From Minisyncoccia bacterium (GTDB lineage: Bacteria; Patescibacteriota; Minisyncoccia; Phycocordibacterales; UBA5272): a stretch of DNA of 64,000 bases. This document shows positions 1,704 to 51,328 of this stretch, piece by piece. The notes beneath the pieces are model-generated. The model had not been told where the DNA came from. It saw only the letters and a list, made by a program, of their open reading frames with translations, and did no database searches. Every line of letters starts with the position of its first letter. Position 1 is the stretch's first letter. The position numbers and the translations under genes were made by a program. The stretch covers positions 391 through 64,390 of the forward strand of contig JBDHUS010000001.1 in the NCBI GenBank assembly GCA_039809325.1. Direction: 5' to 3'.

Positions 1704-3050
1704 TTACTCACCATATTGTTTTAGATAATCAATTTTATCTTGAATTCCTGCTACTCTATTCATAACTTGAGTACCATATGAACAAGAACTTCCTCCTGTA
1801 CCATAATACTTACAAGCTGCCTTTACTTGTGATGAATATGAATTTGTAGCTCCTAATTGTGATAAATAATATGAAGAAGCTGTGATGGCATCTCTAGCAT
1901 TCCAAGGATTTGAAACTCCCGCTCTACTCTCTACTGAAAGCCAAGTAGAAGCAATAAACTGAGCTGGCCCCATAGCTCCACCATATCCTCCAGCTGATGG
2001 TATGGGACAAGATACTACAGTAGTTAGCGGATCAAGTCCAAGTCTCTTTGTTATAGCAATAAAAGGTTCTAGATCTCTCGTTGGCTTCATTACATTATTG
2101 TATTGTGTTTTAGTATTTATATTATATCCTGCACCACTTTCAAGATCTGACAAATAACATTTCCCTACATTTGCTCCAAGTGCTGATTCTTGAGTTAAGA
2201 TAGCAAGCACAAGTGCTGCTGGTACTCCTGTTTGATTTTCAGCTTGTTCTGCATATTTAAGAGCATCTCCAAAAGGTATTGCTTTTGTCTCTCCTCCAGC
2301 AAAACTAAATAATGCTGCTCTAATATCTGCTGCTTTTTTTTGCATTTTAACAAGTTCTTTTTTATACTCTTCTTCTTTTCCTTGTGTCTCTTTAAGAAGA
2401 GTATTTTTCTTTGCTTTATTATTATCTATTTTTGTTTGTACTGCCTTTTGTTCATTTTTAAGAGCTATTTGACTATCTTTATTATCTTCTAAGGAAGATT
2501 TCACTTTATTAACTTCATTTGAAGTTAATTTTATTTTATTTACATCTTCACTAACAGAAGATTGAAAAGCTACTATTTTATCTGCTTCTGTAAAAAATTC
2601 AGATATAGTCTTTTTGTCAAGTAAAAGATTTATAAAATTATTCGTTCCGTCAAAGAAATACATATTTCGAAGAGCATTTGATAAAGCAATTTTTTGTTTA
2701 TCTAAAGTGTTTGATAAATCATTTAATTCTATATTTTTATTCACTATTTGACTATTTAATAAAGATATATTTCCATCAATCTTTTTGATTTCTAATTTTT
2801 TCTCATCTATTTGAGCTTGTAGAAGCTTAATTTCTTTAGATAAAGTATTTTTTTCTTTTTCTGTAGAAGATATAATTTTTTGTTGCTCTAACATTAATTT
2901 ATCTAGATCAGCTAAATCTTTTAGTAATCTTATTTTTTTCTCTTCTTCTGTTTCAGCAAAAGTATTTTTTATACTTAAAAAAGAGAAAGGTATAATTAAA
3001 ATAAAAAAGGATAATATTATATATCTCTTATACTTATTTAAAAAACTCAT
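1704..3050 (-). CDS. secreted coiled-coil protein with a C-terminal lytic transglycosylase (SLT_2/MltB-like) domain
   Basis: N-terminal signal/TM segment, then a long heptad-rich K/E/L region. The C-terminus carries QESALG...GAMGPAQFIASTW, which resembles the GPMQF(M/I)PSTW motif of SLT_2 transglycosylases. Confidence 0.55.
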   Translation of the reverse strand: MSFLNKYKRYIILSFFILIIPFSFLSIKNTFAETEEEKKIRLLKDLADLDKLMLEQQKIISSTEKEKNTLSKEIKLLQAQIDEKKLEIKKIDGNISLLNSQIVNKNIELNDLSNTLDKQKIALSNALRNMYFFDGTNNFINLLLDKKTISEFFTEADKIVAFQSSVSEDVNKIKLTSNEVNKVKSSLEDNKDSQIALKNEQKAVQTKIDNNKAKKNTLLKETQGKEEEYKKELVKMQKKAADIRAALFSFAGGETKAIPFGDALKYAEQAENQTGVPAALVLAILTQESALGANVGKCYLSDLESGAGYNINTKTQYNNVMKPTRDLEPFIAITKRLGLDPLTTVVSCPIPSAGGYGGAMGPAQFIASTWLSVESRAGVSNPWNARDAITASSYYLSQLGATNSYSSQVKAACKYYGTGGSSCSYGTQVMNRVAGIQDKIDYLKQYGE

Positions 3051-5508: not shown

Positions 5509-5799
5509 TTAATTAAAAAAGCTTGTTATAAATTTATATATTGATGATGCTGAATATATTATCACAAGGCCAAGAAGCCCCCAAAGCATATGATTTCTAC
5601 CTTTTATAACATCATCACCATGATTTTTAGCTTTAGCATATAAAAATACAAATACCCCCCATAAAAACCACACAAAAGCAAGAGCTGAAACAACATATAT
5701 AAGAGGATTTACAAATTCTGCAATTATTACATTAACGGTTTTATCTATTATTTCCATGTTTTTAATAATATAAAATATTATATCATAAATCAAAATCAC
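5509..5799 (-). CDS. small membrane protein carrying the two-helix pilin-like (VirB2/TrbC-like) module
   Basis: 96 aa. Two hydrophobic helices are separated by a charged loop (FLWGVFVFLYAKAKNHGDD...HMLWGLLGLVII). The module is shared with the 5851, 7649 and 8662 genes. Confidence 0.4.
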   Translation of the reverse strand: MILIYDIIFYIIKNMEIIDKTVNVIIAEFVNPLIYVVSALAFVWFLWGVFVFLYAKAKNHGDDVIKGRNHMLWGLLGLVIIYSASSIYKFITSFFN

Positions 5800-5850
5800 T
5801 ATTCTTAGAATAGTGATTTTGATTATTTAGATAATCTTAATAATTATTCC

Positions 5851-6477
5851 CTATCTAATAGGTAAAACTGGAGCATTTACCTGCACATTTGGATTGATTC
5901 CTATAAAGTCTCCAAAAAATGCAATAATCCCCCATAATGTAACCATTATAAATATAGCAATTAAAGAATACATCATGTTTTGAAGAGCCTCTTTTCTTTT
6001 TCCTGCATCATTCTTACCTTTAATTAAATACATTATTAAGAACCAGAAGAAGAATACTACACCTAATCCTAAAAGGATCGGTGGAAGTAATCTTACAATT
6101 CCTCCAATTCCTCCAATAAGATTACTAAAAAAAGATAAGTCTGCTTGATTTGCTCCCATTTGTCTTTGATAACTACCTTGTGTATATGATGGACCTCCTT
6201 GTGCTCCACCTGTACCATTTGGTTGACACATTGGTTGTCCATTTACATTTACAAGTGTATAACCTTGTTGACATGTTGGAATACCTGTTTGGCCTTGTTG
6301 CCCCGGTTGTCCAGTTGTACTACCACCTCCGACAGGAATACATACTCCACCAGAGATTTGTCCTGGTCCTCCATTTGCAGTAACACAAACTTGCTGTGCA
6401 GAAACACCTGAAAATGAGAATATGAAAGCAAAAGCTATCAATAATACAATAACATTTTTATTAATAAAGTTTTTCAT
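5851..6477 (-). CDS. secreted Gly/Gln/Cys-rich protein with a C-terminal two-helix pilin-like membrane module
   Basis: Signal peptide, then a G/Q-rich region with 4 Cys, then TM1-loop-TM2 (KEALQNMMYSLIAIFIMVTLWGIIAF). This is similar to KEFMMWGLISLFVMVSVWGIIKL in the 7649 gene. Confidence 0.45.
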   Translation of the reverse strand: MKNFINKNVIVLLIAFAFIFSFSGVSAQQVCVTANGGPGQISGGVCIPVGGGSTTGQPGQQGQTGIPTCQQGYTLVNVNGQPMCQPNGTGGAQGGPSYTQGSYQRQMGANQADLSFFSNLIGGIGGIVRLLPPILLGLGVVFFFWFLIMYLIKGKNDAGKRKEALQNMMYSLIAIFIMVTLWGIIAFFGDFIGINPNVQVNAPVLPIR

Positions 6478-6703
6478 AATTTTTATATTAATATAATTAT
6501 AATTTTAAGATTATCTTTCTAAATAACCTATGCATAAATTATAGCATTAAAAATGCTATTGCAATATAATTATTCACAATTAAAAATAGCCGCCAACTCG
6601 ACACAATCTTATATCAAAACCGTTGATATCGTCATGTGTTTTGTCATATGACGATATGTTATTTTAATATATATTGTGTGAATTAGCGACTAGTGAAGCC
6701 TGC

Positions 6704-6982
6704 CTATTTTGTCTTTTTCTTGCTTTTGTCCTCTTTAGTACCTAAAAGTACTACAAGGACAAACCAAATTGCTAAAATTATAATTCCTAATCTGAATATT
6801 CCATTCCATGGAATATGGCTAAGAAAATGATTAAAGAAACTTTGGAGTCCGCTGGATTGCAACCTGCCCGAGAACATAGAAATAAAGAAGATTGCCAAAA
6901 AAAATAGCGGAAAACCTACATACACAAAAGATTCTTTAATAGCTTCTTTTGGTGTGATTTCATCCTTTTTTTTGTCTGCCAT
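6704..6982 (-). CDS. hypothetical small membrane protein
   Basis: 92 aa ORF with two predicted TM helices and a Lys-rich C-terminus. Confidence 0.3.
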   Translation of the reverse strand: MADKKKDEITPKEAIKESFVYVGFPLFFLAIFFISMFSGRLQSSGLQSFFNHFLSHIPWNGIFRLGIIILAIWFVLVVLLGTKEDKSKKKTK

Positions 6983-6998
6983 TTTTACAGTTTTAAGG

Positions 6999-7313
6999 TT
7001 AAGATTTTTTTTCTTCTTTTTTTTCTTCTTTTGGTTTTGAGTCTTTCATAACTGAAACCAAAAATACAGGCATGATGCCAATAATTAAAGTTAGAAGAGC
7101 CACTAGGGTTGCAAGCATGTTTCCACCCTTATCAAGAATTTTAGAAACAATCGCCCCTCCTACAGTAAAAACTCCAAGCATATAAAGGACTGAAGCTAGG
7201 TGCATACTTTTTGCTTGTTCAAGGTTATCTTTGTTTATTGCCATAATAAAAATTTTTAAAGCTTTAAAAAATAAATAAAGAAAACCGCTCTCCGAAATAG
7301 GCATTCGCCTCAT
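6999..7313 (-). CDS. hypothetical small membrane protein
   Basis: 104 aa ORF with two hydrophobic segments and an EEKK-rich tail. Confidence 0.3.
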   Translation of the reverse strand: MRRMPISESGFLYLFFKALKIFIMAINKDNLEQAKSMHLASVLYMLGVFTVGGAIVSKILDKGGNMLATLVALLTLIIGIMPVFLVSVMKDSKPKEEKKEEKKS

Positions 7314-7408
7314 AACAAAGAACAGCTGATATCTTTTATAGTATATACATGATTAAAAAATTTGTCAAGAATTTGTATTAGTCCGTCAGATGATAGAGTT
7401 TTTAATCT

Positions 7409-7648
7409 TTATCTATTATCTTTCATATAAAAATAGCTTTTTCCAGTAGTTCCACAATATAATCCTGATTGACACTCATCATCTTCTTTACAAGTTGCAC
7501 CTAAGGGTAATGTTATAAAATTAGAAATAACACGTATCGATTTGTTAGTCACACCTCGAAAAGTAAAATCGTTGAGAATTTTACAATTTCCACTCTCACA
7601 ATCAGAATTCTCTTTACATTCTTGACCATTAGCTTTTTTATATGCAAT
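7409..7648 (-). other. in-frame continuation after the TAA stop of the 7649..8680 gene; encodes a further Cys-rich module
   Basis: The same frame stays open for 80 codons after TAA (7649-7651): IAYKKANGQECKENSDCESGNCK...CKEDDECQSGLYCGTTGK. The motif ECQSGLYC mirrors QCVSGLYC inside the upstream protein. Confidence 0.4.
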
Positions 7649-8680
7649 TTAAGGATTAGGACAATCTTTAACCACTATTCCTGTAAAAGTTGTTTTCTGC
7701 CCTGTTTGTACTACTAAAGCCTCCCATGTTTCTTTACCAACTTCTCCATCTACACCCAATCCATTTACTTTTTGAAAATTTTTAACAAAAGCAGCATCAG
7801 CTTCATCATATGTTGTACTAAAAGTATAATTACTTGGCATACAATTATGCTTTTTTAATAAATTCTCAAGTAAGGTAAAAGCTTTTTTATCTGGTGAAGC
7901 ACCTGCTTCTAATGTAGACTTTGCTCCTATTTTAATAACTGGATATAAGTCTTTATTATCAAATACATTTTCTCTTTTTACTCCTCCAGCATCATTTTGT
8001 ATAGGACTATTTTTAGGTCTACATTGCCCTACTTCACCTTTTTTTAATGAAGCGCCTCCAGGACCTAAACAATATAATCCTGAAACACATTGTGATTTTT
8101 CTCCTTCTTGTACAACACAAGTCTCACCAGTTTTTTTAGTATTAAGAAAATCATCTTCATTACCCAAAACATTTTTTTCAGGTTTTTTCTCACCACTACC
8201 AGTACCCCCTCCACTACCTGTATTTAATGTTGCAAATCTTACAGGTTCAATAACTATTTCATTCCCTTTTATTTGAAGTAGCCCTTGTGCTAATTTTATA
8301 ATTCCCCAAACGGAAACCATAACAAAAAGAGAAATAAGTCCCCACATCATAAATTCTTTTCCTTTTTTTAATTCATTACCATCTTTTCCTTGAGCTCTAT
8401 CGTAAATAAATTTTGCAAGCCCATAAAAAAATATAACAAATGCTGCAGTCATTAAAAGAGTGCTCGCACTAGTTAATACATTATTAGTAATATTGTTTGC
8501 TACTTCTTTAAAGCTTTGACTTGCTGTGTATGCATTATCTTGTGCGAAAACTAAATTTAAATTCAAAAGAAAAATAAAAAGAAAAATAGAAATTGATTTT
8601 ATTTTTATTTTTATATTATTTATTTTCATATTTTTATTTATTAAACTTTGATTTAAAATTATTAAGGTAATATTACACAT
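7649..8680 (-). CDS. secreted protein with a pilin-like two-helix module, a Cys-rich region and a C-terminal peptidoglycan-binding-like (PG_binding_1) motif
   Basis: Signal peptide, then TM1/TM2 (FFYGLAKFIYDRAQGKDG...FMMWGLISLFVMVSVWGIIKL). The C-terminal DEADAAFVKNFQKVNGLGVDGEVGKETWEAL resembles PG_binding_1. Confidence 0.5.
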   Translation of the reverse strand: MCNITLIILNQSLINKNMKINNIKIKIKSISIFLFIFLLNLNLVFAQDNAYTASQSFKEVANNITNNVLTSASTLLMTAAFVIFFYGLAKFIYDRAQGKDGNELKKGKEFMMWGLISLFVMVSVWGIIKLAQGLLQIKGNEIVIEPVRFATLNTGSGGGTGSGEKKPEKNVLGNEDDFLNTKKTGETCVVQEGEKSQCVSGLYCLGPGGASLKKGEVGQCRPKNSPIQNDAGGVKRENVFDNKDLYPVIKIGAKSTLEAGASPDKKAFTLLENLLKKHNCMPSNYTFSTTYDEADAAFVKNFQKVNGLGVDGEVGKETWEALVVQTGQKTTFTGIVVKDCPNP

Positions 8681-9744
8681 TTCCCCGTAGATCCTGCTTT
8701 TTGTGTAGAACTTTTACAATAATATCCTCCCACACATTCTGTGTTACTATTTCCACCTTCTAATACAGTACAAATTTCTCCTGGGGCTTTTTTAGAATCA
8801 GGAAGAATTGTACATTTTCCCGTAGATCCTGCTTTTTGTGTAGAACTTTTACAATAATATCCTCCCACACATTCTGTGTTACTATTTCCACCTTCTAATA
8901 CAGTACAAATTTCTCCTGGGGCTTTTTTAGAACCAGTTGGAGAAATAGCTTTTGATTCTAATTTACAAGTGCCTTTTTGTGTACCTATTAATTCTACTCC
9001 TCTTTCATCTTGACAAGAAAGACCTGGACCGCAACTATTAGATTCTGTTGTCATACCTCCTAAACATTGCTGATTAAGCTGTAGTCCTACTTTTCTACAT
9101 ATTCCTTCTCCACTTGATAATGGTCCTCCTGTTAATTTATCTCTACAACCTAAACCTGTATCACAAATAAATCCAGGGGTGGTCGCTCCGGCAGTGCAAG
9201 CATCTCCTTCTGAAATATTTGCTCCTACATCTCCTCCTACATCTCTACCTAATATACTAGGATCTGGCTTTTTCTCATCAAATACTCCACCTCCACCTTG
9301 AGAAGGTTTATCTGATTTGGTTGTATCACAAGATCCATTAACACAAATTCTTGGTAAATTTATATCATTATTACCTTGCATACCTAAAATACCTTGTACT
9401 AATTTTATAATGCCCCAAACAGATACAAGTATAAATAAGGCGCCTAGTCCCCAAGTCATACCTTTTTTATCTCTTGCTAAACTTTTTTCATCACCTCTTG
9501 CTCTGTCATAGATAAATTTCACAAGTCCAAAAAGAAATGCCGCAAGTGCTGCACCACTAAAAAGTATTACTAAATTATCTACTATATTTTTATTAAAATT
9601 TAAAATGATTCCTCCAACATCTGCAAAGTCTGGCGTGTTATTAAATATGTTACCAGAAGTAGCCGCTAAAGAATGATTTAAAATCAAAGCAAAAGATAAA
9701 ATAAAAACTATAATTAATTTAAATTTAATATTTTTTTTAGACAT
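8662..9744 (-). CDS. secreted protein with a pilin-like two-helix module and multiple Cys-rich knot-like modules, including a perfect tandem 45-aa repeat
   Basis: FLFGLVKFIYDRARGDEK...GMTWGLGALFILVSVWGIIKL is followed by repeated C-x-C-x(2)-G-L/Y-x-C modules. The final 45 aa are duplicated exactly. Confidence 0.5.
   Translation of the reverse strand: MSKKNIKFKLIIVFILSFALILNHSLAATSGNIFNNTPDFADVGGIILNFNKNIVDNLVILFSGAALAAFLFGLVKFIYDRARGDEKSLARDKKGMTWGLGALFILVSVWGIIKLVQGILGMQGNNDINLPRICVNGSCDTTKSDKPSQGGGGVFDEKKPDPSILGRDVGGDVGANISEGDACTAGATTPGFICDTGLGCRDKLTGGPLSSGEGICRKVGLQLNQQCLGGMTTESNSCGPGLSCQDERGVELIGTQKGTCKLESKAISPTGSKKAPGEICTVLEGGNSNTECVGGYYCKSSTQKAGSTGKCTILPDSKKAPGEICTVLEGGNSNTECVGGYYCKSSTQKAGSTGKCVILP
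8681..8950 (-). repeat. direct tandem duplication, 2 x about 135 bp, inside a coding region
   Basis: About 118 nt are identical between 8682-8800 and 8816-8934 (cccgtagatcctgc...ggggcttttttagaa). They encode KKAPGEICTVLEGGNSNTECVGGYYCKSSTQKAGSTGKC twice. Confidence 0.85.
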
Positions 9745-10417: not shown

Positions 10418-11302
10418 CTATTGAGAATTATTACTTGATGATTCTACTTTAACTTCTCCCGCAATATCATTTAATGTATTTAACATTACTGCCACTGCTG
10501 CGGAAGCTGCTGCCGCAATAGCAATACCAATAACTACCCGGACTGCAAAAGCTTTTGCTTTTTTTAAAGCCTCAGCATTGCCCTGTGCTTTTACAAATAG
10601 AAATCCAGACCAAATAGTAGCCCCAACAAGAGCGGGAGCTGCTATATAATTTATTAAAAATCTTATAGCTAGCAATATTAATGATGGGACAGTTTGATTT
10701 GGAAAAAAATTTGCATAACCAACACCTTCTTTCTCAGTTTCTCTAGCAAGATTCTCAGAAATATTATTAATAGGATCTGCGGCCATAGCATGATTAAATG
10801 GAAGGATACTATTACTTGTATTTGCTAGTAAATCCTTTAATAGATTTAAAACTTCTGTTTGCATACCAAGTGCAGCCATAATACCAAGCACAAGACCCAT
10901 ACCAACAACAATTATTAGAAGAGCATAAATAGAATTCTTAATACGTTTTTTCCATTTTATTAAAAATTGAGAATTGTTACCATTATATACATAACCTATG
11001 CCAGATATTATCAACATCAATACAAGAGAGATAATTACTAGATAAATAGCTAACTGCACCAAAACTTTAAGAAGTTTTATGGCATCTTTTGGGGTACATC
11101 TTTCATTTAAATCTGAAGAATATGGGTCACATGGCATTAATCCGTGACTTCCACTACTCAAATTTGATAAACCTTGAAGGGCTTTCTCTTCTGCACTTTG
11201 AGCTTCTGCTTTTTTTACTAAAGGTGAAGAAAAATTAAAAGCAAAAATAAATAATAATGCTATCAATAATATTTTTGCTTTTTTCATAAATCCTTTTTTC
11301 AT
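10418..11302 (-). CDS. polytopic membrane protein with signal peptide; possibly VirB6/TrbL-like
   Basis: Signal peptide followed by 4-5 TM helices and an Ala-rich last helix. The topology resembles VirB6/TrbL, but no specific motif is recognised. Confidence 0.3.
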   Translation of the reverse strand: MKKGFMKKAKILLIALLFIFAFNFSSPLVKKAEAQSAEEKALQGLSNLSSGSHGLMPCDPYSSDLNERCTPKDAIKLLKVLVQLAIYLVIISLVLMLIISGIGYVYNGNNSQFLIKWKKRIKNSIYALLIIVVGMGLVLGIMAALGMQTEVLNLLKDLLANTSNSILPFNHAMAADPINNISENLARETEKEGVGYANFFPNQTVPSLILLAIRFLINYIAAPALVGATIWSGFLFVKAQGNAEALKKAKAFAVRVVIGIAIAAAASAAVAVMLNTLNDIAGEVKVESSSNNSQ

Positions 11303-11311
11303 ATATCTTTA

Positions 11312-12682
11312 TTAATTTCCTCCACTATAAATAGTCTGTAGATTATCTGCAAATATTTTACTTGCTTCTACTGTACTTTTTTCTCCATTATACACTTGTC
11401 TTATAGCTTCACGCATTAATCGTTCTAAATCTGTTCTATGTAAATCATAAAAATCTTTACTTATAAGGGCACTATTTCCAAATATTTCAGCTCCTTGATC
11501 TCCTGAAGAAATTTTATTTGCTATTTCAGATTTTAAAACTGATATTCCTCCTGTTAATGCAACTAAATAAGAATTATATTTACCTGGTGAAGCAAAATAT
11601 TGCATAACTTGATAAGCTAAACTGCTGGGGCTAGCTCCGACACTGGTATTCAACATAAAAACTACATATAATTTTCCATAAGTCGCAGAAACTTTGCTTC
11701 CTAAAATTTGTGGCAAAAGAGTATAGTCAAAATATAATTTTTGATTTGCATTTTTAATATATCCAGCTTCTGATGCAAATCCTATATAAAAAGCAAGATT
11801 TCCAGAAATAAATTCATTTAAAGCGCTACCAGATCTCGGAGTCCAATTAAAAGTTGGTTTTTGAGTGTCTGCAAAATCTTTTGTAAATGCAAGCGATGAA
11901 TTAAGTGGTGATATTCCAGTATCTGTATTATATTCATCCATATTTATGGTATATTTTGCAGAATAATTTCCTAAAGAATCTCTTGTATATTCTTTACTTA
12001 TTGGATTTTGTCCTTGTTGAAGAATCATCGCCATAATAATGTCTGTTATGTGTGGAATATTATCATAAGTACCAAAAGCAATTGTAGATAATGTATTATT
12101 GCCCTCGGAGTCTTTTTTTGTAATTTTTTCTTCATAATTATAAAGATCCCCCCATGTGGTTGGCGGAGATACAAATCCATTACTAGAAAGTATATCCCTA
12201 TTATAATAAAGGACTAGTGGATCAACAGATATAGGTAAAGCTATATATCCTCTCGGCATATCTATTAAATTTGAAGCTATATCAGCATAAATATTTCTAA
12301 AAGTTGTTTCTCCTATGGTTGACGGTAATGTATAATATATTCTATTTAGATTAGAAAAAGCTATAGAAACAGGAGCTATTATTAAATCTGGAGGATAACC
12401 ATCTGCTAATGATATTAATAATTTATTATTAAATTCTTCTAAAGGGACTTCTGTATAATTCATTGTATAAGTTTTTGCATCTTTATCAAATTCATCAACA
12501 AATGAAGCCATCGCAGTATTAGATAAAGTTCCCCAAACACGCACTGTTCCTGTTAAGCGTTGTTTAGAAGAATTATTAAAAATTGGAAGCTTTCCTGAAA
12601 AGCCAAAAATAGCAATTACAACTGCAAAAATAGCAACTCCTATTAAAATATTTTTAAAATTTAAAAACCTATCAAAGTTCAT
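11312..12682 (-). CDS. membrane-anchored extracellular solute-binding protein (family 1-like)
   Basis: N-terminal anchor, then TVRVWGTL...YPPDLIIAP...LPISVDPLVLYYNRDIL...PTTWGDL. This pattern is typical of ABC-type SBP_bac_1 proteins. Confidence 0.45.
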   Translation of the reverse strand: MNFDRFLNFKNILIGVAIFAVVIAIFGFSGKLPIFNNSSKQRLTGTVRVWGTLSNTAMASFVDEFDKDAKTYTMNYTEVPLEEFNNKLLISLADGYPPDLIIAPVSIAFSNLNRIYYTLPSTIGETTFRNIYADIASNLIDMPRGYIALPISVDPLVLYYNRDILSSNGFVSPPTTWGDLYNYEEKITKKDSEGNNTLSTIAFGTYDNIPHITDIIMAMILQQGQNPISKEYTRDSLGNYSAKYTINMDEYNTDTGISPLNSSLAFTKDFADTQKPTFNWTPRSGSALNEFISGNLAFYIGFASEAGYIKNANQKLYFDYTLLPQILGSKVSATYGKLYVVFMLNTSVGASPSSLAYQVMQYFASPGKYNSYLVALTGGISVLKSEIANKISSGDQGAEIFGNSALISKDFYDLHRTDLERLMREAIRQVYNGEKSTVEASKIFADNLQTIYSGGN

Positions 12683-12729: not shown

Positions 12730-13260
12730 TTATTGTGATTCTATATTTTTAATAGAAAAAGCATAATGATAGTCTCCTGCAGGAAAATGCTTTATTACAT
12801 CAAAATTATATTTAGCCAATATGGCTAAAACTTTTTCTTCTTCTATAATGCTATGTCTTTTAAGTGTTATATTTTCTTCTGTATTTTTCCAGTCTGCTAT
12901 TAAAATTCTTCCATCAAACCTTAATATTCTTTTTGCCTCTTTTATTAAATTATCTATATTAACAACTTCTGATAAAATATTTGAAAGTATAATAAGATCG
13001 CAAGAATCATTATCTAAATAAATCTTTTCTTCTACATCTGCAACTATTCCGTCTATATTTATAATGCTTTTTTTTTCAGCTTCACGATTTATTTTGTCTA
13101 TCATATCTGTAAATCGATCTATAGCATAAACTTTTCCTCTATCTCCTACAAATTTAGAAGCTGCAAAAACATAAGCTCCTGCTCCACATCCAAAATCTGC
13201 TACAATATCACCTTCTTTTAAATTTAAACTATTTATGATCTGTTCTGGTGAGATAAACAT
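12730..13260 (-). CDS. class I SAM-dependent methyltransferase (start moved to MFISPEQ)
   Basis: Motif I DIVADFGCGAGAY plus an acidic motif II (DLIILSNIL). The upstream 27 codons of the track ORF look non-coding. Confidence 0.7.
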   Translation of the reverse strand: MFISPEQIINSLNLKEGDIVADFGCGAGAYVFAASKFVGDRGKVYAIDRFTDMIDKINREAEKKSIINIDGIVADVEEKIYLDNDSCDLIILSNILSEVVNIDNLIKEAKRILRFDGRILIADWKNTEENITLKRHSIIEEEKVLAILAKYNFDVIKHFPAGDYHYAFSIKNIESQ

Positions 13261-15885: not shown

Positions 15886-18800
15886 TTAGCTTGCAGGAGC
15901 GGGATCATCCGGATTTACCAAAGGTATTGTAGAGGAAGAATTATCAGTATTTTCTGGATCTGTAGAACTAGCAACAGTTGTGTCAAGATTATCTGCTGAC
16001 TCTCCTCCGCCTATTGATTCAGGTTCTTCTTCTGCGCCGCTCCCTCCGGTCGCGCCGCTTCCACCCGCATCCACACCACCTCCACCAATAGTATTAATTT
16101 TATTAATAGCATTTTCCAAAGTGTCACCATCAGTACAAAATCTTGATCCGTCAGATTTTTTGAAACAAAGTTTATTTTCTATTTCTACTCTATTAAAGTA
16201 TCCAACAACCGCAGTTATCTTTGCTACAACAAAATCATGAATAATAGAAATTTTATTATTAACTTTTTCTAAAATAATATTTAAGACAGATTTATTATAA
16301 TTATTATTTTCATTAATAATTAAATTAAGTGTGTTTGTTGCGTTTGTATTATCTATCATATCTGGAGTACTAGAACCTGTCAGAGTTGTGAATTGATCTT
16401 TCAAAGCATTCACAATAGTTGCTATGATTGGCCTATCTTGAAGAGATAAATATCCATTAGGTGATGTTGATACTGCTTCTGGTATTGCATTTTGTATGTT
16501 TTGAGCAGAGAAACCAGTATAGAAGTTATTAGTATCTAGTCCGGATGTTTCATTCCATTTGTATGAGATTGGGTTTATTTTTAATAGATCTAGTATAGAT
16601 CTATTGTATGGAGTTATGTTTTCTTTTAGTCTTTCGTCTGATGATACTGATAGGTTACCATTTGCGTCAGTGGTGAGTGTACCGGCTCCGAAACTAGAGA
16701 ATCTTATTGTACCTGATGCATGTAATGTAGCTGTTGGTGATGTTGTTCCTAGTCCTACTCCAATGTTACCTCGTAGGAATGTTTTAGTGATGGAGGTGTT
16801 ACCGAGGGTGACGGAGTTGGAGCCGTTTCCTGTGGCATTGTATCCTATTACTATTTCATTAGAACCACCATCTGTAAGAGCTTTAGTTAAAGAACCTAGA
16901 AGTACGGAAGTACTCATAAAAGTTAGCTTTACAGACCCTCCTGATATAAATTTTCCTGCGTCAGCACCAATTACAACATTATAATCTCCTTTTGTTACAT
17001 TAAGCATAGAGTTTATTCCTATAGAGCTATTCCCGTACCCAGCATCAAGGGAATATAAAGATTGTACTCCTATAGCCACGCTAGCGCTAGAACTTGTAGA
17101 ATTTCTTAAAGAAGATAGACCTATAGCAACATTACTTCCTCCATTTATATTATTAAAAAGTGTAGCTACGCCTACAGCAACATTCAAAGAACCCGTTCTA
17201 TTCTCTTTTAAAGACCCCTGTCCCAATGCCACATTATTATATCCGGTAGTATTTGAACTTAATGTATTATCTCCTACAGCTGTGTTGTAGGAACTTTCAT
17301 AATTGTATGTTGCCATTTTACCCATATTAAAATTACCTGAATTCTTACCTAAAAATATATTACTTCCTACAGTAGTCACTGCCCCATTATCTCCATAATT
17401 AAAATTATGTAAAAATGGGACTCCGTCTGAATATATTACTCCTATCACTTCTGATGAAGTAGAATTTTGTGTTGATGGTAGATATATATTTGATTCTGAT
17501 TTTAAAGAAGAAAATGTTCCAATATTTGGCTTAGCTATACCTATTGCCATTGGTGAAGAGAATATTGAAGAAAGATTACTTGCTAATAATACATTCGGTA
17601 TATTATTTACTATATTTTCTGTTTGAAAGTTTTCTTTTATGAATTTAGCTACTTGTTCTGCTACTACTTTATATCCATAGTTATTTAAATGCAGCCCATC
17701 GTAAGATAAAGAACTGGGTATTACATCATTATCAATATCTATTAAATCTTGCGCTGTTGGTATAATATTTGCATCTTGTAATCCTCGCTCTATTAAATAT
17801 GTACGGATATCAAAATAATTATTTGGATAAGTTGACGCAAGATCATTATTTAATTGTATAATGGTATTATAATTAACTTCTCCTTTTCTTTCTAAATTTT
17901 TATTTGCATTTATTACTGATAAAATTAAATACTTTTGATTTCCATTCAGATTTGCAACCATAGCAGCTATATCTGCTTCTGCTTGTGTTGGATTATTAAA
18001 ATTATTCCTTCCTGTCCAGATAACTGATATACCATTATTTAAATTTCTATTATCAATAATAAAAGTAGATGAAGTTGTAGAGACAATTAATCCGTTTACA
18101 TCTCTTGAAAATAAAATTGATCCAGAACTATATTTTAATGTACCATATATTCCAGCAAGTGTTCCTTTTATACCGTTAGCAGGACTTTGAGCTGTTACTG
18201 GCTCATATCCTATAGGAAAAGTAACAGTTACTGTCGCACCTGCTGTTGCTGGTATTTCTCCACCAACTATTGTTACAGTTGGTTGGTATGCTCCTTGACG
18301 GACAGCAATTTGAGTTGAGCCTTGACCACCTACTCCATTATTATAAACAAGAATATTCAATATTCTAGATAAAACATTTGGATAATTATTGCCAACCGTA
18401 GAGCCACCTCCCGATGTCAAACTATCCCCCCAAGCCGTCACAAAACTACTAGGATTTACTGTGCTTACTACCTCACTATTATCAGCAAAATTTAACCCTA
18501 ATGAAGCTAAAGTTGGTGTAGGATTATTTACTATTGTAGTGCTCTGTGTTGGGACAAATTGATATTGTGTAGAATTTGGAGTAAATATAGACGCCCAATT
18601 TGTATTAGTATTTGTTGTATTTATTGGTATATCTAAATTATTTGCTGTAGTAAATGATTTTTTATCTATTTCTGAAAGCTTTGCATTTAAAGTATTTATT
18701 TGTTTTTGTAAAGCATTTATTTCTTGAGAATAATCTTTATTATCAGTATTTTTATCTACTATTTCATTTGTTTTATTTATTTTTTCTGAACTCTTTGTAT

Positions 18801-39463: not shown

Positions 39464-40048
39464 TTATATCATGCTATGATTTAGTACAAAAACAATATGC
39501 TCCTTGACTTCTTTTTCATTTAAGAGAAAGTGCGTAAAAAAATCTTTCATTTCAAAATTTTTGTATTCTATAATATCTTTCACCCCTATAACTTTTGCAT
39601 CAGCATATCCTGTGTCTACAAGCACCAAATAATAAATCAATATTTTTAACTTAAGCGGGTCCATCTGGGTAAGACCATTTGAACAAATCGTTAAAAATTT
39701 TAACTTTTCAAAAAGCTTTTTATATGTTTTCTTTTCCTCTAAGAATCTACTTATTGTTTCAGAGATTAATGATTTTATTTCAGAAAAATATTGTGAAGTG
39801 CCAAGATTTTCTTTTATCTCTTCTACCCCAGTGAGTCTCCAAATATCTTTTCCTTTTACAAGAGTCATATTTAAAAACTCATTTTTTTTAGCATTCATGC
39901 GGAGCTTGGCATTTATTTTTCTTATACTTCTTGCAAGTACAAAAATAATACCAAAATCTTTGGTCCAAACTTTATAAACAAGATCATTTTCGTCTTGTGC
40001 ATATTCTTTCAAAATAAAAGCTTCAGTTGTGTATTTTTCAATGGACAT
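39464..40048 (-). CDS. possible short RecO-like protein
   Basis: The N-terminal OB-fold-like pattern EAFILKEYAQDENDLVYKVWTKDFGIIFVLARSIRK resembles the RecO N-domain. Confidence 0.35.
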   Translation of the reverse strand: MSIEKYTTEAFILKEYAQDENDLVYKVWTKDFGIIFVLARSIRKINAKLRMNAKKNEFLNMTLVKGKDIWRLTGVEEIKENLGTSQYFSEIKSLISETISRFLEEKKTYKKLFEKLKFLTICSNGLTQMDPLKLKILIYYLVLVDTGYADAKVIGVKDIIEYKNFEMKDFFTHFLLNEKEVKEHIVFVLNHSMI

Positions 40049-43000
40049 TAATTTTCCAAGCTAATTTTTTCCTCATTTCCTTCAATAAATTTAATTATAG
40101 AAAGCTTACAATCTTTTTTTAACTCTTCTTCAAGAGATTTGATAAAATCAATCCTTTCTTTACCAGATTCTACAAATAGTACAGCAATATCGCTTGGAGT
40201 AAGATTTTTATCTTTTCTTAAATCTTTTATTTTCCTTGTTAGCTCACGATAATCACCTTCCTTTTTAAGTTCTTGTGTTATTTCTAAATCAAGAATTACA
40301 TTTTGATTTTCAAAATATTCTTTAGTATTGTCTAACAATGCCTCTTTTACATTTATTTCCTCTTTCAAAATATCAAGATATTTTTTATCTATTTTTTTAT
40401 TTATAAATAATTTTGAAAGTGGCTGACGAACTGGAATATTATTTTTTTGTCTTTGCATCAAAGCTTCTGTTACAAGAGCTCTCACCTCATCCATTTCTTC
40501 TATAACTTTTTCATCTATAACAAATATATTCTTTGGCCAAGCTTCTAAATGTGCAGATTCTTTTTTCTCTAAAGTGTATTTATTTATAGACAAATAAATT
40601 CTCTCTGCCAAAAATGGCATAAATGGAGCAATTATCTTTGAGAATTCATTGAGTATTTTGTAGAGTGTAAATTCGGCATTCATTTTCTCTTCCTCGCCAG
40701 ACTCTCCTTTTAACCTTTCACGAGATCTTCTTAGCCACCAAGTAGAAAGGTCGTCGATGAACTTTTCAAGTGGACGAGTCGCTTGATCAAGCTTATACTC
40801 ATTCATATTTTTTGTTACTATCTCTAAAACTTCGGCAACTCTTGTGAAAATCCAAATATCCATTGGATTTTCTATTTTTCTTTCTTTTGGAGGAAGTTCA
40901 ATATTTAACATTTCATAAAAACTCAAAACATTTTCTAATTTTGCCACAACTTTTTTATAAGTCTCTTCTACGTTTGCATCTGAAAATGGAATATTTTCTG
41001 CACACATTGCTGGCGACGAAAGCAGAGTCTGACGAAAAGCGTCAGCACCATATTTTTCAACTAGCACCATAGGATCAGTATAATTCCTTTTGCTCTTACT
41101 CATTTTTTCTCCATCAGCTGCCGTTAAAAGACCATTTACTATTACATTTTTATATGGAGATTTTTCAAAAATACCTACAGAAATATTTAAAAGAGAATAA
41201 AACCAACCTCTAGTTTGATCAAGGCCTTCTGCTATAAAATCAGCTGGAAAATTTTTATTAAAAATATTCTGATTTTCAAATGGATAATGAATTTGTGCCA
41301 TCGGCATAGAACCTGACTCGAACCAACAATCAAATACATCTGGGATTCTCTCCAATTCTTCTTTATTCTCTCCTAATAATTTAATATTATCTATATAAGG
41401 TTTATGAAGATTTATTTTTCCTGTTTCATCTCTTGGCACTAATTTTAAATCTAATTTTCTTATTTCTGCATTTTTAGGATAGAGTTTCGTTTCTTCTGTC
41501 AATTCATCTTCTATAAGTTTTTCTTTCGTTATAAGCTCTCCTGCAAAAGCTATCATTCTCATAGGGCCTCCATGAGTTACTATTAAAATATTTTTTCCTT
41601 CATATCTATTTTCTAATTCATATATTCCTTTCATCACTCTTTTTATCACATCATTATGTGATTCTCCTCCGCCGAGTTTTAGATCTAAATTTAAATAATT
41701 AATACCGTAATCTTTTTCTATTTCTGTATTAGGTTTTTTGCTATAAGTTCCTAGATTGATTTCTGTAAAGTGCTCATCTATTATTACTTCTTTTTCTTCT
41801 GCCATTATTTTAGCGGTTTCAAAAGCTCTAAGATACGGAGAAGATATTATTATGTCAAAATCTATACCTATTTCTTCTCTTGCTTTTTTAACCTGCTCTA
41901 TACCATTTTCTGTAAGATGATTATCTGGATCCATGTCTGTTTCCTCTATACCTAATACATTGTGTTTTGCCTCACCATGCCTCATTATATAATATTGGTT
42001 TTTTGGTTTATTAATATTTTCTTTAGCTAATTCTTCCAAAGAAGATACTATTTTTATCTCATTTCCATTTTTATTTTTCCATATAGGTATAGGAGCCCCC
42101 CAATATCTACTTCTTGATACTGCCCAATCACGTGCCCCTTCAAGCCATTTTCCAAATCTCCCATCACGAATATTTTCTGGTATCCAATTTACTTTAGAAT
42201 TCTCTTTTAATAATTCAGATTTTATTTCTGGAACTTTTATAAACCAAGAACTAGTAGCATAATTAAGAAGAGGTGTCTCACATCTCCAACATGTAGGATA
42301 AGCATGTATTAATTTTTCTTTTGCAAAAATAAGCCCTCTACTTGCTAAACTTTTTATAATTAAAATATCAGCTCCTTGATTATCGTCTTTTGTCTTAACT
42401 TTCACTCGAGGAAAATCTATGACTTCTTTTGTAAACTCTCCATTCATTTCTACATGTCTTATAACTGGTAAAGATTTTTCTTTAGATAAATTCAAATCAT
42501 CTTCTCCAAAAGCTGGAGCAATATGTACTATACCTGTCCCTGTATCCAAAGAGACAAATTCACCATTTACTATGATATAAATATTCTCTTTATTTTCTAA
42601 TTTACTATTTATGAAATAATCAAAAACTGGTTTATACTTTTTTCCAACTAATTTTTCTCCAAAAAAAGTTTCAATTATTTCTACATTCAAATTTACTTTT
42701 TTAAATACTTCTTCTGCTCTTTCTTTTGCTAGAATATAAATCTCTCCTGATTCAGCTTTAGCTTTTATATATTCAAATTTTTCATTTATGGCAAGTGCAA
42801 CATTCCCTGGAAGAGTCCACGGCGTAGTAGTCCAAGCTAAAAGAAAAGTATTTGGCTCATTTTCAAGCTCAAATTTTGCGGTTACAGAAATATCTGTTAA
42901 ATCTTTATATCCTTGCGCCACTTCAGATTGAGCAAGTGTTGTCTCACATCTTGGACAAATATGCATACTTTTATATCCTTCAAATACAAGGCCTTTTTTG

Positions 43001-43500
43001 TAAAGCTCAGAAAAAGCCCACCAGACTGACTCTGTATAATTTGGATCCATTGTGCTGTATGGATTTTCCATATCTATCCATCTACCAAATCTTGGTATTG
43101 TTTCTTTCCATTCTTTTTCATATGCAAATACACTTTCTTCTGCTTTTTTATTAAAATTATTTATTCCAAATCCTTCTATTTCTTTTTTAGAATTTAATTT
43201 AAATTTCTTTTCAATCAAATTTTCAATCGGAAGCCCATGTGTATCCCAACCCCATACACGACGAACATATTTACCATTCATGGTTTGAAATCTTGGTATT
43301 GCGTCTTTTATTGTTCCAGCTAAAAGATGGCCATGATGAGGAAGACCTGTTGCAAATGGAGGCCCGTCATAAAAAGTAAAACTTTCTGGATTTTCTACCT
43401 CACCGGGATTCTTAAGAGATTTTTCGAATATTTTATTCTCTTTCCAAAATTTTAATATCTCTAATTCTTTTTCGTTTATACTTTTGTTTTTATTATTCAT
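40048..43500 (-). CDS. ileS: isoleucine--tRNA ligase with an inserted histidine-phosphatase (PGM-like, RHG) domain; start moved to MNNKNK
   Basis: HIGH (PHHGHLLAG), WDTHGLPIE, WTTTPWTLP and KMSKS (GEKMSKSKRN). A roughly 185-aa insert (aa 520-705) carries YYIMRHGEAKHN and LIVTHGGPMR. Confidence 0.9.
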   Translation of the reverse strand: MNNKNKSINEKELEILKFWKENKIFEKSLKNPGEVENPESFTFYDGPPFATGLPHHGHLLAGTIKDAIPRFQTMNGKYVRRVWGWDTHGLPIENLIEKKFKLNSKKEIEGFGINNFNKKAEESVFAYEKEWKETIPRFGRWIDMENPYSTMDPNYTESVWWAFSELYKKGLVFEGYKSMHICPRCETTLAQSEVAQGYKDLTDISVTAKFELENEPNTFLLAWTTTPWTLPGNVALAINEKFEYIKAKAESGEIYILAKERAEEVFKKVNLNVEIIETFFGEKLVGKKYKPVFDYFINSKLENKENIYIIVNGEFVSLDTGTGIVHIAPAFGEDDLNLSKEKSLPVIRHVEMNGEFTKEVIDFPRVKVKTKDDNQGADILIIKSLASRGLIFAKEKLIHAYPTCWRCETPLLNYATSSWFIKVPEIKSELLKENSKVNWIPENIRDGRFGKWLEGARDWAVSRSRYWGAPIPIWKNKNGNEIKIVSSLEELAKENINKPKNQYYIMRHGEAKHNVLGIEETDMDPDNHLTENGIEQVKKAREEIGIDFDIIISSPYLRAFETAKIMAEEKEVIIDEHFTEINLGTYSKKPNTEIEKDYGINYLNLDLKLGGGESHNDVIKRVMKGIYELENRYEGKNILIVTHGGPMRMIAFAGELITKEKLIEDELTEETKLYPKNAEIRKLDLKLVPRDETGKINLHKPYIDNIKLLGENKEELERIPDVFDCWFESGSMPMAQIHYPFENQNIFNKNFPADFIAEGLDQTRGWFYSLLNISVGIFEKSPYKNVIVNGLLTAADGEKMSKSKRNYTDPMVLVEKYGADAFRQTLLSSPAMCAENIPFSDANVEETYKKVVAKLENVLSFYEMLNIELPPKERKIENPMDIWIFTRVAEVLEIVTKNMNEYKLDQATRPLEKFIDDLSTWWLRRSRERLKGESGEEEKMNAEFTLYKILNEFSKIIAPFMPFLAERIYLSINKYTLEKKESAHLEAWPKNIFVIDEKVIEEMDEVRALVTEALMQRQKNNIPVRQPLSKLFINKKIDKKYLDILKEEINVKEALLDNTKEYFENQNVILDLEITQELKKEGDYRELTRKIKDLRKDKNLTPSDIAVLFVESGKERIDFIKSLEEELKKDCKLSIIKFIEGNEEKISLEN

Positions 43501-43504
43501 AATT

Positions 43505-43745
43505 TTGATTGAAAATTTGTTAATAAATTCTTTAAATTTTTCTAAAATAAAAATCACCCAAAACTCTTTCAAGTTCAAGGGCGATTTTGTCGCGGTACCA
43601 CCTTGATTCCAGAAAATATTTCTGCTTCATTTATGAGGGTCTATTTGGAGCGACACCTCCGGCGTCGCCCCTTTCTTCCTCAAGCTCTGGAGTGATTAGT
43701 TCCGTCTCTGCTTTATACTTTTATTATATCAAAAAATATAAAAAT
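43505..43745 (-). promoter_or_regulatory. T-box leader upstream of ileS
   Basis: - The minus strand reads AATCAAGGTGGTACCGCGACAAAATCGCCCTTG, matching the T-box consensus AAUNAGGGUGGNACCGCG with its antiterminator.
- The competing terminator is AAAATCGCCC...GGGTGATTTT followed by a U-run.
- An AUC (Ile) triplet followed by A lies upstream (CUAAUCACU). Confidence 0.55.
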
Positions 43746-51217: not shown

Positions 51218-51328
51218 AATGTATTATCTATTATTTATATTTCTATTATATCTCATATACATAGATAATATTTGATTTTTTATCTCTTATGTGGATAATT
51301 GATATATTTTAATGCTATTATATATAAT

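Follow-up and report, generated by a model that had tools for sequence, protein, structure and literature searches.

Classical conjugative pilins are bare peptides of 70-120 aa. VirB2 of A. tumefaciens, TrbC of RP4 and TraA of F have a leader peptide and two hydrophobic helices joined by a short basic loop, with the termini outside, and the proteins described here share this plan. A modular design is found among type IV pilins, where PilB and PilC of Streptococcus sanguinis have vWA and lectin modules grafted on. In Patescibacteria, arrays of VirB2-like pilins are already known, having been described in 2023-2025. Such an array is essential in Ca. Southlakia epibionticum (SEML1_0006-0019 region; Wang et al. 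2023, PMC10633639), and this Saccharibacteria array, which is homologous to the one reported here, sits inside an essential T4SS cluster (PMC10633639). A total of 441 arrays have been reported in Patescibacteria, with a mean paralogue identity of 25% (Quinonero-Coronel et al. 2025, PMC12102498). No pilus of this pilin family has yet been imaged (PMC12857230). Arrays of VirB2 paralogues also occur in Bartonella (Trw) and Anaplasma, where they are presumed to modulate surface interactions (as cited in PMC12102498).

The window analysed here, a 64-kb stretch of DNA from an ultra-small bacterium of the Patescibacteria type, contains a related array. Five genes (5509, 5851, 7649, 8662 and 10418) encode a common two-helix module in six copies, and a census of all six reading frames of the window found the module in these genes only. 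All genes and features located by coordinates below lie on the minus strand, including the four open reading frames (5509, 5851, 7649 and 8662) that a sequence-only reading of this DNA had singled out. Pfam family PF18895 (T4SS_pilin) matched all five proteins; 5509 (27.8 bits) and 7649 (28.9 bits) exceeded the gathering cut-off of 26.6 bits, and 5851 (22.5 bits), 8662 (18.7 bits) and 10418 (18.9 bits) fell below it. NF045849 (NCBIfam, 'pilin-like conjugal transfer protein') was the top or only membrane-module match in all five (E = 6e-6 to 0.02), each scoring under its cut-off of 40 bits. Since these two independent profile libraries agree, the array proteins are supported as paralogous Sec-type exported proteins that combine a VirB2/TrbC-like two-helix pilin module with variable ectodomains, some of them Cys-rich. 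Of 108 long relatives taken from syntenic loci, 87 matched PF18895 and 11 matched TrbC (PF04956, best E = 1.3e-7), the family that the sequence-only reading had proposed for comparison; 7649 itself matched TrbC weakly (E = 0.015). Direct matches to solved pilins were not significant: hhalign of the array module against A. tumefaciens VirB2 gave E = 0.12, Foldseek comparison of the hairpin with solved structures returned generic hairpins alone (E > 1) with no link to VirB2 or TraA, and a profile search of PDB sequences with the pilin module gave no matches.

Judged from its sequence, the shared segment is homologous well beyond hydrophobicity, as had been proposed. Smith-Waterman z-scores against shuffles were 6-34, 7649 and 8662 were 36.5% identical over 219 aa (E = 3e-29), and an HMM built from 7649 orthologs alone recovered 8662 (2e-26), 5509 (2e-15) and 5851 (2e-11). 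Paralogue identity is low (24-37%), as in the other Patescibacteria arrays, which also share PF18895 and a monoderm CPR host with a reduced genome. The locus differs from them in that it lies neither inside nor beside a virB4 cluster and stands behind a gene for a solute-binding protein (SBP), and in that four of its five members bear grafted ectodomains or a second module. No description of these domain fusions or of the SBP-linked, virB4-unlinked context was found in the searchable literature; the fused domains and the gene neighbourhood are thus the new element beyond the known arrays. The mycoplasma ICE proteins of NF045849 (Mbov_0395 and ICE_MMCAP2_0565) are likewise two-helix proteins, of 80 aa, of a monoderm T4SS, but they lie within the ICE conjugation cluster and have no ectodomain. 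The design matches that of the modular type IV pilins by analogy only, with a conserved polymerisation module and a grafted domain encoded beside bare pilins; those belong to an unrelated superfamily with a class III signal peptide processed by PilD, a motif absent here.

Each module forms a hairpin in which a short Lys/Arg-rich loop, with six Lys/Arg in 7649 and in 8662, connects two long hydrophobic helices (43 and 33-35 residues in AF2 models). In hydropathy and topology analysis every Cys of the array proteins falls in predicted outside parts; the predicted topology has both module ends extracellular and the loop cytoplasmic. Conservation among 7649 orthologs peaks in the TM helices (consensus fraction 0.81-0.85 versus 0.35-0.47 in the ectodomains), and the module dN/dS is 0.07-0.10 in 7649 and 8662, which argues for a role of the module beyond anchoring. 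The motif (M/L)WGL-x7-V-x-(L/V)WGII that had been assigned to four genes is complete in 7649 and, with T for M/L, in 8662, but its spacing is x6; 5851 has YSL for WGL, and 5509 has no second WGII. The module does stand at the N-terminus in three of these genes and at the C-terminus in one, namely 5851.

Read as it is transcribed, the cassette opens with the gene for a membrane-anchored SBP of 456 aa (11312..12682; SBP_bac_8 56.5 bits, SBP_bac_1 48.3 bits) with an N-terminal hydrophobic anchor, as had been recognised. Between its stop and the start of 10418 there are 9 nt; in the related L083 the SBP gene and the next gene overlap by 20 nt. Both genes had been placed downstream of the array, whereas they are upstream in the direction of transcription. 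Gene 10418 (10418..11302, 294 aa) had been read as a polytopic VirB6/TrbL-like membrane protein. Pfam gave no match to TrbL/VirB6 in it at E <= 1; it is instead a tandem double pilin module, the fifth family member, comprising a signal peptide, a PC..C loop, module 1 (aa 78-143), a 54-aa outside linker and module 2 (aa 215-278), the latter of the canonical 'SGFLFVKAQGN' type. PF18895 found both stretches, as did the iterated lineage HMM (4.5e-9 and 3.2e-14; 1.5e-7 and 1.1e-12 in another run); the narrow HMM from 7649 orthologs alone fell short of significance (E = 0.2-0.8). The hydropathy and loop charges also fit the module. The segment 9799..10417 is a remnant or split-off C-terminal ectodomain of 10418. 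Three-frame translation showed it to be severed by a TAG stop and a frameshift in an N/T-rich linker, and its domain is homologous to the C-terminus of an intact 519-aa ortholog in L008 (E = 4e-6). L002 has one 472-aa gene, and the whole 640-bp segment holding 9799 is missing from L083 and L004.

Gene 8662 (8662..9744, 360 aa) encodes a signal peptide, the pilin module, a conserved PRICVNGSC and four 4-Cys knot modules. A motif census found such modules, which the sequence-only reading had described as C-x-C-type and knot-like, four times in 8662, once in 7649 and nowhere else in the window. More distant 8662 orthologs (including those of L001 and L002) have two PG_binding domains where the knots stand. 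One knot module is repeated in tandem (8677..8936; TRF period 135 bp or 45 aa, 1.9 copies, 98% matches). The duplication had been called perfect; it is real, but only a core of ca. 105 nt is identical and the ends differ. The contig L086 (99.9% identical) and the protein P0046 (315 aa) have one copy fewer. Within the window the copies have the same core sequence, and so do those of L083, yet the cores differ between these genomes, and the copy ends are orthologous between the two; the repeat is variable in copy number and undergoes concerted evolution.

Gene 7649 (7649..8629, 326 aa from the ATG at 8629) encodes a signal peptide, the pilin module, one Cys-knot and a PG_binding_1 domain flanked by two invariant Cys, an architecture common to ca. 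40 ortholog clusters. The AF2 model places the helices at residues 37-79 and 85-117. The PG_binding_1-like tail noticed earlier is borne out by Pfam (33 bits, E = 7e-8), by PDB sequence and Foldseek matches, which land on PG-binding domains, and by a pLDDT above 95. Since orthologs begin at the MK(I/T)NN methionine, the start is at 8629, leaving a 32-nt gap to 8662; of the 19-nt gene overlaps once listed there is only one (8662-8680), a product of longest-ORF calling. Past the TAA of 7649, reading on in frame yields two degenerate Cys-knot modules (7422..7648), in agreement with the in-frame stop said to truncate one member. This segment is deleted in L083, and five orthologs (P0006, P0007, P0025, P0036 and P0039) keep an intact C-terminal knot after the PG-binding domain. 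Gene 5851 (5851..6477, 208 aa; 5e-23 with the iterated lineage HMM) has a signal peptide, a Cys/Gly/Gln-rich N-terminal ectodomain and the C-terminal module; its orthologs in L001, L002 and L083 are 183-207 aa long. The last array gene, 5509 (5509..5757), encodes a bare short pilin of 82 aa from the ATG at 5757, without a signal peptide (orthologs 82-90 aa), modelled by AF2 as a hairpin of helices 2-44 and 47-81 (pLDDT 86). It is a candidate for the major subunit.

The locus lies between gyrA and glyS, a placement conserved across Paceibacteria, and the order gyrA, class-I methyltransferase, anchored SBP, pilin array is kept in nearly all of 79 related loci. Each locus has four to five pilin-like genes in conserved order, with a canonical or double module first and a short 'W-type' pilin last (51 of 70 loci). 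Relatives fuse the same module to TIG, FN3-like, Ig-like, PG_binding_1 or PG_binding_3 domains, have ectodomains of up to ca. 650 aa and form tandem chains of 2-8 modules; the fused ectodomains here, of 90-240 aa, likewise set the family apart from VirB2, TrbC and TraA. Known conjugative pili show neither large ectodomains, N- or C-terminal, nor covalently linked chains of up to eight modules, and both features fit a membrane-embedded assembly equally well.

Based on these results, it is hypothesised, with a probability of roughly 0.5, that the locus is a chromosomal VirB2/TrbC-related pilin array of a conserved Paceibacteria cassette, whose helices co-assemble into an envelope structure built with a T4SS encoded elsewhere. 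The conserved helices would form a hetero-oligomeric structure, either a short pilus-like fibre or a wall-spanning base, and a VirB4-type T4SS encoded elsewhere in the genome would build it; the PG-binding member 7649 would tie it to the wall, and the variable knot modules would be its exposed, host-contacting face. Polymerisation or pilus assembly, T4SS dependence and adhesion are what we infer for the array proteins, and the 'appendage or adhesin' function suggested earlier is plausible. The fixed roles within the array, with four to five genes per locus and a conserved order, favour the module as a pilin subunit, and the domains fused to it in relatives favour surface display. In a rival reading, the proteins are anchored in the membrane and build no fibre; the hairpin would be an oligomerising anchor that presents PG-binding, Cys-knot, Ig-like or TIG domains at the cell surface for wall tethering or host adhesion, independently of a T4SS. 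The locus is unlinked to T4SS genes: VirB4, VirD4, VirB6 and VirB3 were absent among the scanned ORFs of the window, and VirB4, VirD4 and VirB6 were also missing from the annotated neighbours up to +-10 kb from the 79 related loci, where the conserved or large neighbours are housekeeping genes. VirB4 is listed as present in seven of nine genomes carrying the locus (Table S1, PMC12102498); the two scored negative, both drafts, speak for a fibreless anchor, as do the generic hairpin fold, the long ectodomains and module chains of relatives, and the PG_binding_1 domain, which acts at the wall and suggests that its subunit stays there. However, the conservation of the TM helices goes far beyond what a simple anchor would require, the bare 82-aa member, with nothing to display, is kept at the end of the array, loci at greater distance hold almost nothing but short, bare pilins, the family matches T4SS pilin profiles including TrbC, and the homologous Saccharibacteria array belongs to an essential T4SS cluster. 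A fibreless anchor is a possible but less probable account than the pilin array.

The neighbouring SBP raises a further option, an uptake device in which the anchored SBP hands a host-derived solute to a channel or conduit of hairpin modules that replaces an ABC permease. In 71 of 79 loci an SBP homolog directly precedes the array, with the tight spacing or overlap noted above, the scanned ORFs of the window include no ABC permease or ATPase, multi-module chains could form pseudo-oligomeric bundles, and the Patescibacteria T4SS/pilus has been speculated to be an uptake conduit (PMC12857230). Since gyrA and the methyltransferase are conserved beside the array to the same degree, without any evident functional link, synteny is weak evidence in a reduced genome. 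Moreover, no energising component is present, the hairpins have no polar or charged intramembrane residues suggestive of a pore, the SBP matches carbohydrate-type families weakly (NCBIfam), and the genome may carry an ABC transporter at another locus, so that we regard uptake as unlikely. Least probable is that the shared segment reflects chance or compositional similarity of unrelated hydrophobic proteins, or that the proteins are type IV (PilA-type) pilins. TM segments do inflate similarity scores, three members are under the Pfam cut-off and the membership of 10418 comes partly from an iterated profile, but the shuffle z-scores, the E-values down to 3e-29 and the independent ortholog-only HMM speak against chance, the module is confined to five genes of the window, and the class-III signal peptide and N-terminal FTLIE-type motif of type IV pilins are both absent.

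All genes are under purifying selection (dN/dS 0.13-0.35 across the array, highest in 5851). Since every paralogue has a 1:1 ortholog, in conserved order, in related Paceibacteria, the locus is not a recent expansion. The rapid diversification proposed earlier holds for domains, through the copy number of the 135-bp repeat, the two stop-severed domain remnants and the exchange of PG-binding domains for knot arrays, but not for the genes themselves. Tandem amplification and variation of T4SS pilin genes are shared with the Bartonella (Trw) and Anaplasma arrays; those lie inside a T4SS locus of diderms and vary by point substitution, whereas in the present array purifying selection acts on the core, and what varies is the gain and loss of domains and the number of repeat copies.

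The array genes are not all adjacent, as had been stated, since two small 2-TM genes sit between 7649 and 5851. The 79-aa product of 6999 (6999..7238) has a Lys/Glu-rich C-terminal tail and no pilin-family match in Pfam, NCBIfam or the lineage HMM, being a non-member inside the array; equivalent small genes occur in L083, L004, L001 and L002, and the region's best promoter-like site is found upstream of it, at 7368-7340. The 92-aa product of 6704 (6704..6982; hydropathy) has a Lys-rich tail and a copy in L004 (74% identity). It is undetected by the module HMMs and weakly similar to module 1 of 10418 (E = 0.003). A stable hairpin with a 13-bp stem after 6704 (6626..6657; RNA fold -31.7 kcal/mol, z = -6.9) is a possible terminator. 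Between 5851 and 5509 lies a 17-bp perfect hairpin (5790..5830; inverted repeat I1, RNA fold z = -6.6), followed by a TATAAT-like box.

A two-helix VirB2/TrbC-like pilin segment (the module) is shared by five minus-strand genes, named here by coordinate (5509, 5851, 7649, 8662 and 10418), and the best-supported reading is that they encode VirB2-superfamily pilin-like subunits assembling through the conserved helices. The similarity first claimed for four of these genes was borne out: the shared segment aligned without large gaps and scored far above composition-matched shuffles (Smith-Waterman z-scores of 6 to 34). 7649 and 8662 were 36.5% identical over 219 aa (E = 3e-29), and an HMM built from the module of 7649 orthologs only matched 8662 (2e-26), 5509 (2e-15) and 5851 (2e-11). 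A six-frame search of the 64 kb found the module in the five genes of the locus and nowhere else. The (M/L)WGL...WGII motif proposed as its signature was complete in 7649 and 8662 only, and its spacing was x6, not x7.

The Pfam family PF18895 (T4SS_pilin, VirB2/TrbC-related; gathering score, 26.6 bits) matched all five proteins. 5509 (27.8 bits) and 7649 (28.9 bits) exceeded the gathering score; 5851 (22.5 bits), 8662 (18.7 bits) and 10418 (18.9 bits, two stretches) fell below it and were tied to the former two by BLASTP (E values of 1e-7 to 3e-29) and HMMs. NCBIfam NF045849 ('Mbov_0395 family pilin-like conjugal transfer protein', from mycoplasma ICEs) also matched the module in all five, below its cut-off. 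The proposed relationship to PF04956 (TrbC/VirB2) held for part of the family, as 11 of 108 long family members from syntenic loci matched this profile (best, 1.3e-7) and 87 matched PF18895 (best, 1.8e-16). The TrbC-like members form a 'canonical' subfamily with a PC..C loop and the pattern ..YAGF.Y.TA.GN.., which is resembled by module 2 of 10418 (WSGFLFVKAQGN) and by its PC..C-preceded module 1. 5509, 5851, 7649 and 8662 belong to a divergent 'WG' subfamily.

AlphaFold models predicted a helical hairpin for both 5509 (helices 2-44 and 47-81, pLDDT 86) and 7649 (helices 37-79 and 85-117). In the topology prediction that the sequence-only reading had called for, hydropathy and charge counts assigned the K/R-rich loop to the cell interior and all Cys-containing segments to the exterior, and four of the five proteins carry an N-terminal hydrophobic signal-like segment. 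Together with the AF2 hairpins, these predictions describe a pair of long hydrophobic helices with a short basic loop between them and the termini outside. A PDB fold search with the bare pilin model gave generic helical hairpins only (all E > 1), PDB sequence profile searches with a 7649 ortholog alignment and an 83-sequence module alignment gave no pilin, and hhalign gave no significant match between the module profile and A. tumefaciens VirB2 (E = 0.12). Since none of these provides a direct link to solved conjugative pilins, the label 'VirB2-like' rests on profile matches and not on structure. A type IV (PilA-type) pilin was rejected, because the proteins have neither a class III signal peptide nor a G/(F,M)TLIE motif and their module has two helices, not one.

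A database-wide search with a profile of the six window modules retrieved 28,653 cluster representatives (50% identity, E <= 1e-3), and many of the matches contained 2 to 8 modules per chain. Tandem T4SS_pilin chains ('poly-pilins') of 3 to 8 modules include the database proteins P0060 (8 modules in 820 aa), P0064 (555 aa) and P0059. Since multi-module chains are frequent, the double module of 10418 (11302-10418) is a common design. This gene had been taken for a VirB6/TrbL-like membrane protein, an assignment that was abandoned: no TrbL/VirB6 match was obtained at E <= 1, and the layout consists of a signal peptide followed by two repeats of TM, basic loop and TM, with two T4SS_pilin stretches. 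ORF 9799 is the C-terminal domain of 10418, from which a TAG stop and a frameshift have severed it, and it shows homology to the C-terminus of a 519-aa protein of a related locus, L008 (E = 4e-6). The 10418 counterpart in L002 is an intact 472-aa gene, and the ORF 9799 segment is missing in L083 and L004.

The window has a G+C content of about 29% and a reduced-genome gene set (aminoacyl-tRNA synthetases, GyrA, FtsH, ribosomal proteins and tmRNA). The nearest relatives, MAGs of the Paceibacteria type, carry the labels Pacebacteria, Paceibacterota or Parcubacteria; the 7649 protein was only 51% identical to that of the best GTDB species representative, and other sequence of the same strain was limited to short contigs (at most 4 kb) in ENA and Logan. 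All genes of the locus are transcribed from the minus strand, in the order of the membrane-anchored solute-binding protein (SBP) gene (12682-11312), 10418, ORF 9799, 8662 (9744-8662), 7649 (8629-7649), the small membrane protein genes 6999 and 6704, 5851, 5509 and glyS. 10418 and the SBP gene are therefore located upstream, not downstream as previously described, and the strict adjacency claimed for the other four genes does not hold, since two small non-family genes break up the run. The array comprises five pilin genes within 5.8 kb, interrupted by these two genes and one remnant, and it fits the definition of a Patescibacteria VirB2-like pilin array (PMC12102498), with a pairwise identity of 24-37%. 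The 19-nt overlaps cited for translational coupling came down to a single case, which vanishes when 7649 is started at the conserved MKINN methionine (coordinate 8629).

Two highly stable hairpins in intergenic parts of the locus, one at 5790-5830 directly before the short pilin gene 5509 (17-bp perfect stem, z of about -6.6) and one at 6626-6657 (13-bp stem, z of about -6.9), suggest that the array is split into sub-operons with 5509 as a separate unit. Promoter-like sites were not enriched relative to shuffles (50 observed, 45 expected), and an Rfam search inside the locus gave no RNA family.

The PG_binding_1 domain (PF01471) noticed at the C-terminus of 7649 proved genuine (33 bits against a cut-off of 23 bits). 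PDB sequence matches included YcbB and phiKZ gp144, a three-helix fold was predicted with pLDDT above 95, and PG-binding domains dominated the Foldseek matches of the 7649 model. Two invariant Cys residues bracket this domain. The motif C-x(4-12)-C-x2-G-x2-C-x(6-20)-G-x-C of the four-Cys modules (knots) occurs once in 7649, four times in 8662 and nowhere else in six frames of the 64 kb. These modules were modelled as small beta-rich knots (pLDDT about 80) and matched no curated family, with weak Dickkopf_N, colipase-like and IGFBP-like signals only, among them a weak fold match to an IGFBP-like domain (3zxc, E = 0.58). The Cys-knot array alone, used as a database query, gave a single match, a close ortholog. 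In other Paceibacteria, the gene after the SBP gene often encodes a protein of 500-740 aa that joins FN3-like, Ig-like or TIG domains to a canonical pilin module at its C-terminus (L050:7119-9332, L063:7464-8987 and L077:7519-9213), and in these fusions the module also matches TrbC PF04956.

When the locus was compared with L083, which is about 84% identical at the nucleotide level, all genes proved to be under purifying selection. The dN/dS was 0.13 for 7649 (module, 0.07; PG-binding domain, 0.045), 0.19 for 8662, 0.21 for 10418, 0.29 for 5509 and 0.35 for 5851, and 0.05-0.15 for the flanking genes. A recent paralogue burst is contradicted by these values and by the conserved synteny and orthologs; the variation sits at the domain level. 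One copy of a 135-bp repeat is gone from a 99.9%-identical contig (L086) and its protein P0046. Within the window, as within L083, the cores of the repeat copies are identical; between the two genomes the core differs, and the 3' ends are orthologous. This pattern points to an old duplication that was homogenised by gene conversion and occasionally collapsed. Past the TAA of 7649, the reading frame continues into a decayed C-terminal knot, which is intact in some orthologs and deleted in L083. Beyond the immediate clade, two PG-binding domains replace the knot array in 8662 orthologs.

The gene context is the strongest new result of this analysis. In L001, L002, L004 and L083, all paralogues have 1:1 orthologs that follow one another in the same order, and the order gyrA, methyltransferase, SBP and pilin array recurs over 79 related loci drawn from Nomura-, Adler-, Kaiser-, Zambryski- and Campbellbacteria and unnamed Paceibacteria. 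The SBP was present in 71 of them, GyrA in 61 and the methyltransferase in 60, with the remainder cut by contig ends. A locus usually contains 4-5 pilin-like genes, and the polarity of the array is kept: it begins with a canonical or double module, and its last gene encodes a short bare pilin in 51 of 70 loci. Since a large number of the more distant loci consist of short pilins only (e.g. 'Cm Ws Ws Ws'), the long 'modular' forms seen in the window's clade appear to be derived. The methyltransferase, located between gyrA and the SBP-pilin cassette, is a small class-I SAM enzyme (ArsM/UbiE-like; 12730-13260, minus strand).

The ORFs that were scanned within the 64-kb window included no VirB4, VirB6, VirB3 or other T4SS machinery, and none of the conserved and large neighbours annotated up to 10 kb on either side of the 79 loci was a T4SS gene. 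The scanned neighbours (conserved families and 10 non-family ORFs of at least 450 aa) were housekeeping or unrelated genes, including Lactamase_B_3, S1, IF-2, RbfA, ClpB, GlmS, NrdD and one PilB-like T2SSE. The functional mark of VirB2/TrbC pilins, being encoded with or dependent on T4SS machinery, was thus not found at the locus. Among nine locus-carrying genomes covered by Table S1 of PMC12102498, VirB4 is listed as present in 7 and absent in two draft Adlerbacteria; the related assembly GCA_020047435 was not found in published T4SS tables. The product may be an extended pilus produced by a T4SS encoded at a distance, a short stub that spans the wall, or no more than a membrane platform. The protein encoded at 11312-12682 matched both SBP_bac_8 and SBP_bac_1, and the scanned window ORFs gave no ABC permease or ATPase. 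A conduit coupled to the SBP is an alternative of low probability.

In the proposed mechanism of VirB2-superfamily subunits, 5509 would be the bare, probably major subunit, 7649 a modular subunit tying the structure to peptidoglycan, and 8662 a modular subunit displaying variable Cys-knot surfaces. More broadly, a class-wide Paceibacteria cassette that is unlinked to virB4 and combines an anchored SBP with 'modular' VirB2-type pilins may build a hetero-polymeric fibre or conduit that is anchored to the wall and serves to contact the host or capture nutrients, a tentative reading to which we give roughly one chance in four. If it is true, conjugation-type pilins can bear grafted PG-binding, Cys-knot, Ig-like and TIG domains, a likeness to type IV pilins, and can be linked covalently into 'poly-pilins' of up to 8 modules, and the system would work in a mode undescribed for any T4SS pilus. 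About 2.5 kb past the array end, a 448-aa protein (1704-3050, minus strand) combines a long coiled coil at its N-terminus with an SLT_2 lytic transglycosylase domain; it is syntenic in close relatives only and could be a putative VirB1-like wall-opening enzyme.

Patescibacteria are thought to be host-attached, and their attachment and feeding are largely unexplained. In Ca. S. epibionticum, the sole genetically tractable species of Patescibacteria, an array of VirB2-like pilins is essential (PMC10633639), yet a pilus of this family has not been seen (PMC12857230). With 441 such arrays reported in 383 Patescibacteria assemblies (PMC12102498) and reviewed (PMC12857230), the kind of locus is already known. 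In the searchable literature, we found no description of ectodomain fusions or multi-module chains, of the Paceibacteria-wide gyrA-MTase-SBP context unlinked to virB4, or of the concerted-evolution repeat. Paceibacteria, a large class, retain the array within a core cassette of the chromosome, unlinked to virB4 and behind the SBP gene (71/79 loci), and in some lineages the pilin module became a carrier of wall-binding and variable Cys-knot domains. These features yield testable hypotheses on the identity of the major, peptidoglycan-anchoring and host-contacting subunits, for which copy-number polymorphism, domain swaps and truncated domains provide natural variants. Polymerisation of the modules, if it occurs, would extend the range of known T4SS pilus architectures.

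Elsewhere in the window, an 851-aa protein encoded right after gyrA (15886-18441, minus strand) combines a GDSL-like lipase/acylhydrolase N-terminus with Peptidase_S74, an intramolecular chaperone of the tail-spike/endosialidase type; L009 also has a Peptidase_S74 protein before gyrA. The isoleucyl-tRNA synthetase (40048-43578, minus strand, 1176 aa) carries a histidine-phosphatase (His_Phos_1) insert at aa 530-677, and a separate His_Phos_1 protein is encoded at 51299-52084. At the window edge, a reverse-transcriptase (RVT_1) ORF (63165-63959, minus strand) adjoins the gene of a 704-aa VWA/CobT_C protein (61018-63132, minus strand), and no pair of DGR-type template/variable repeats was found in the 56-64 kb region. 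A LOOT RNA (Rfam RF03000; 60780-60903, minus strand) lies just upstream of the VWA and RT genes and scored 83.8 bits against a gathering score of 46.4.
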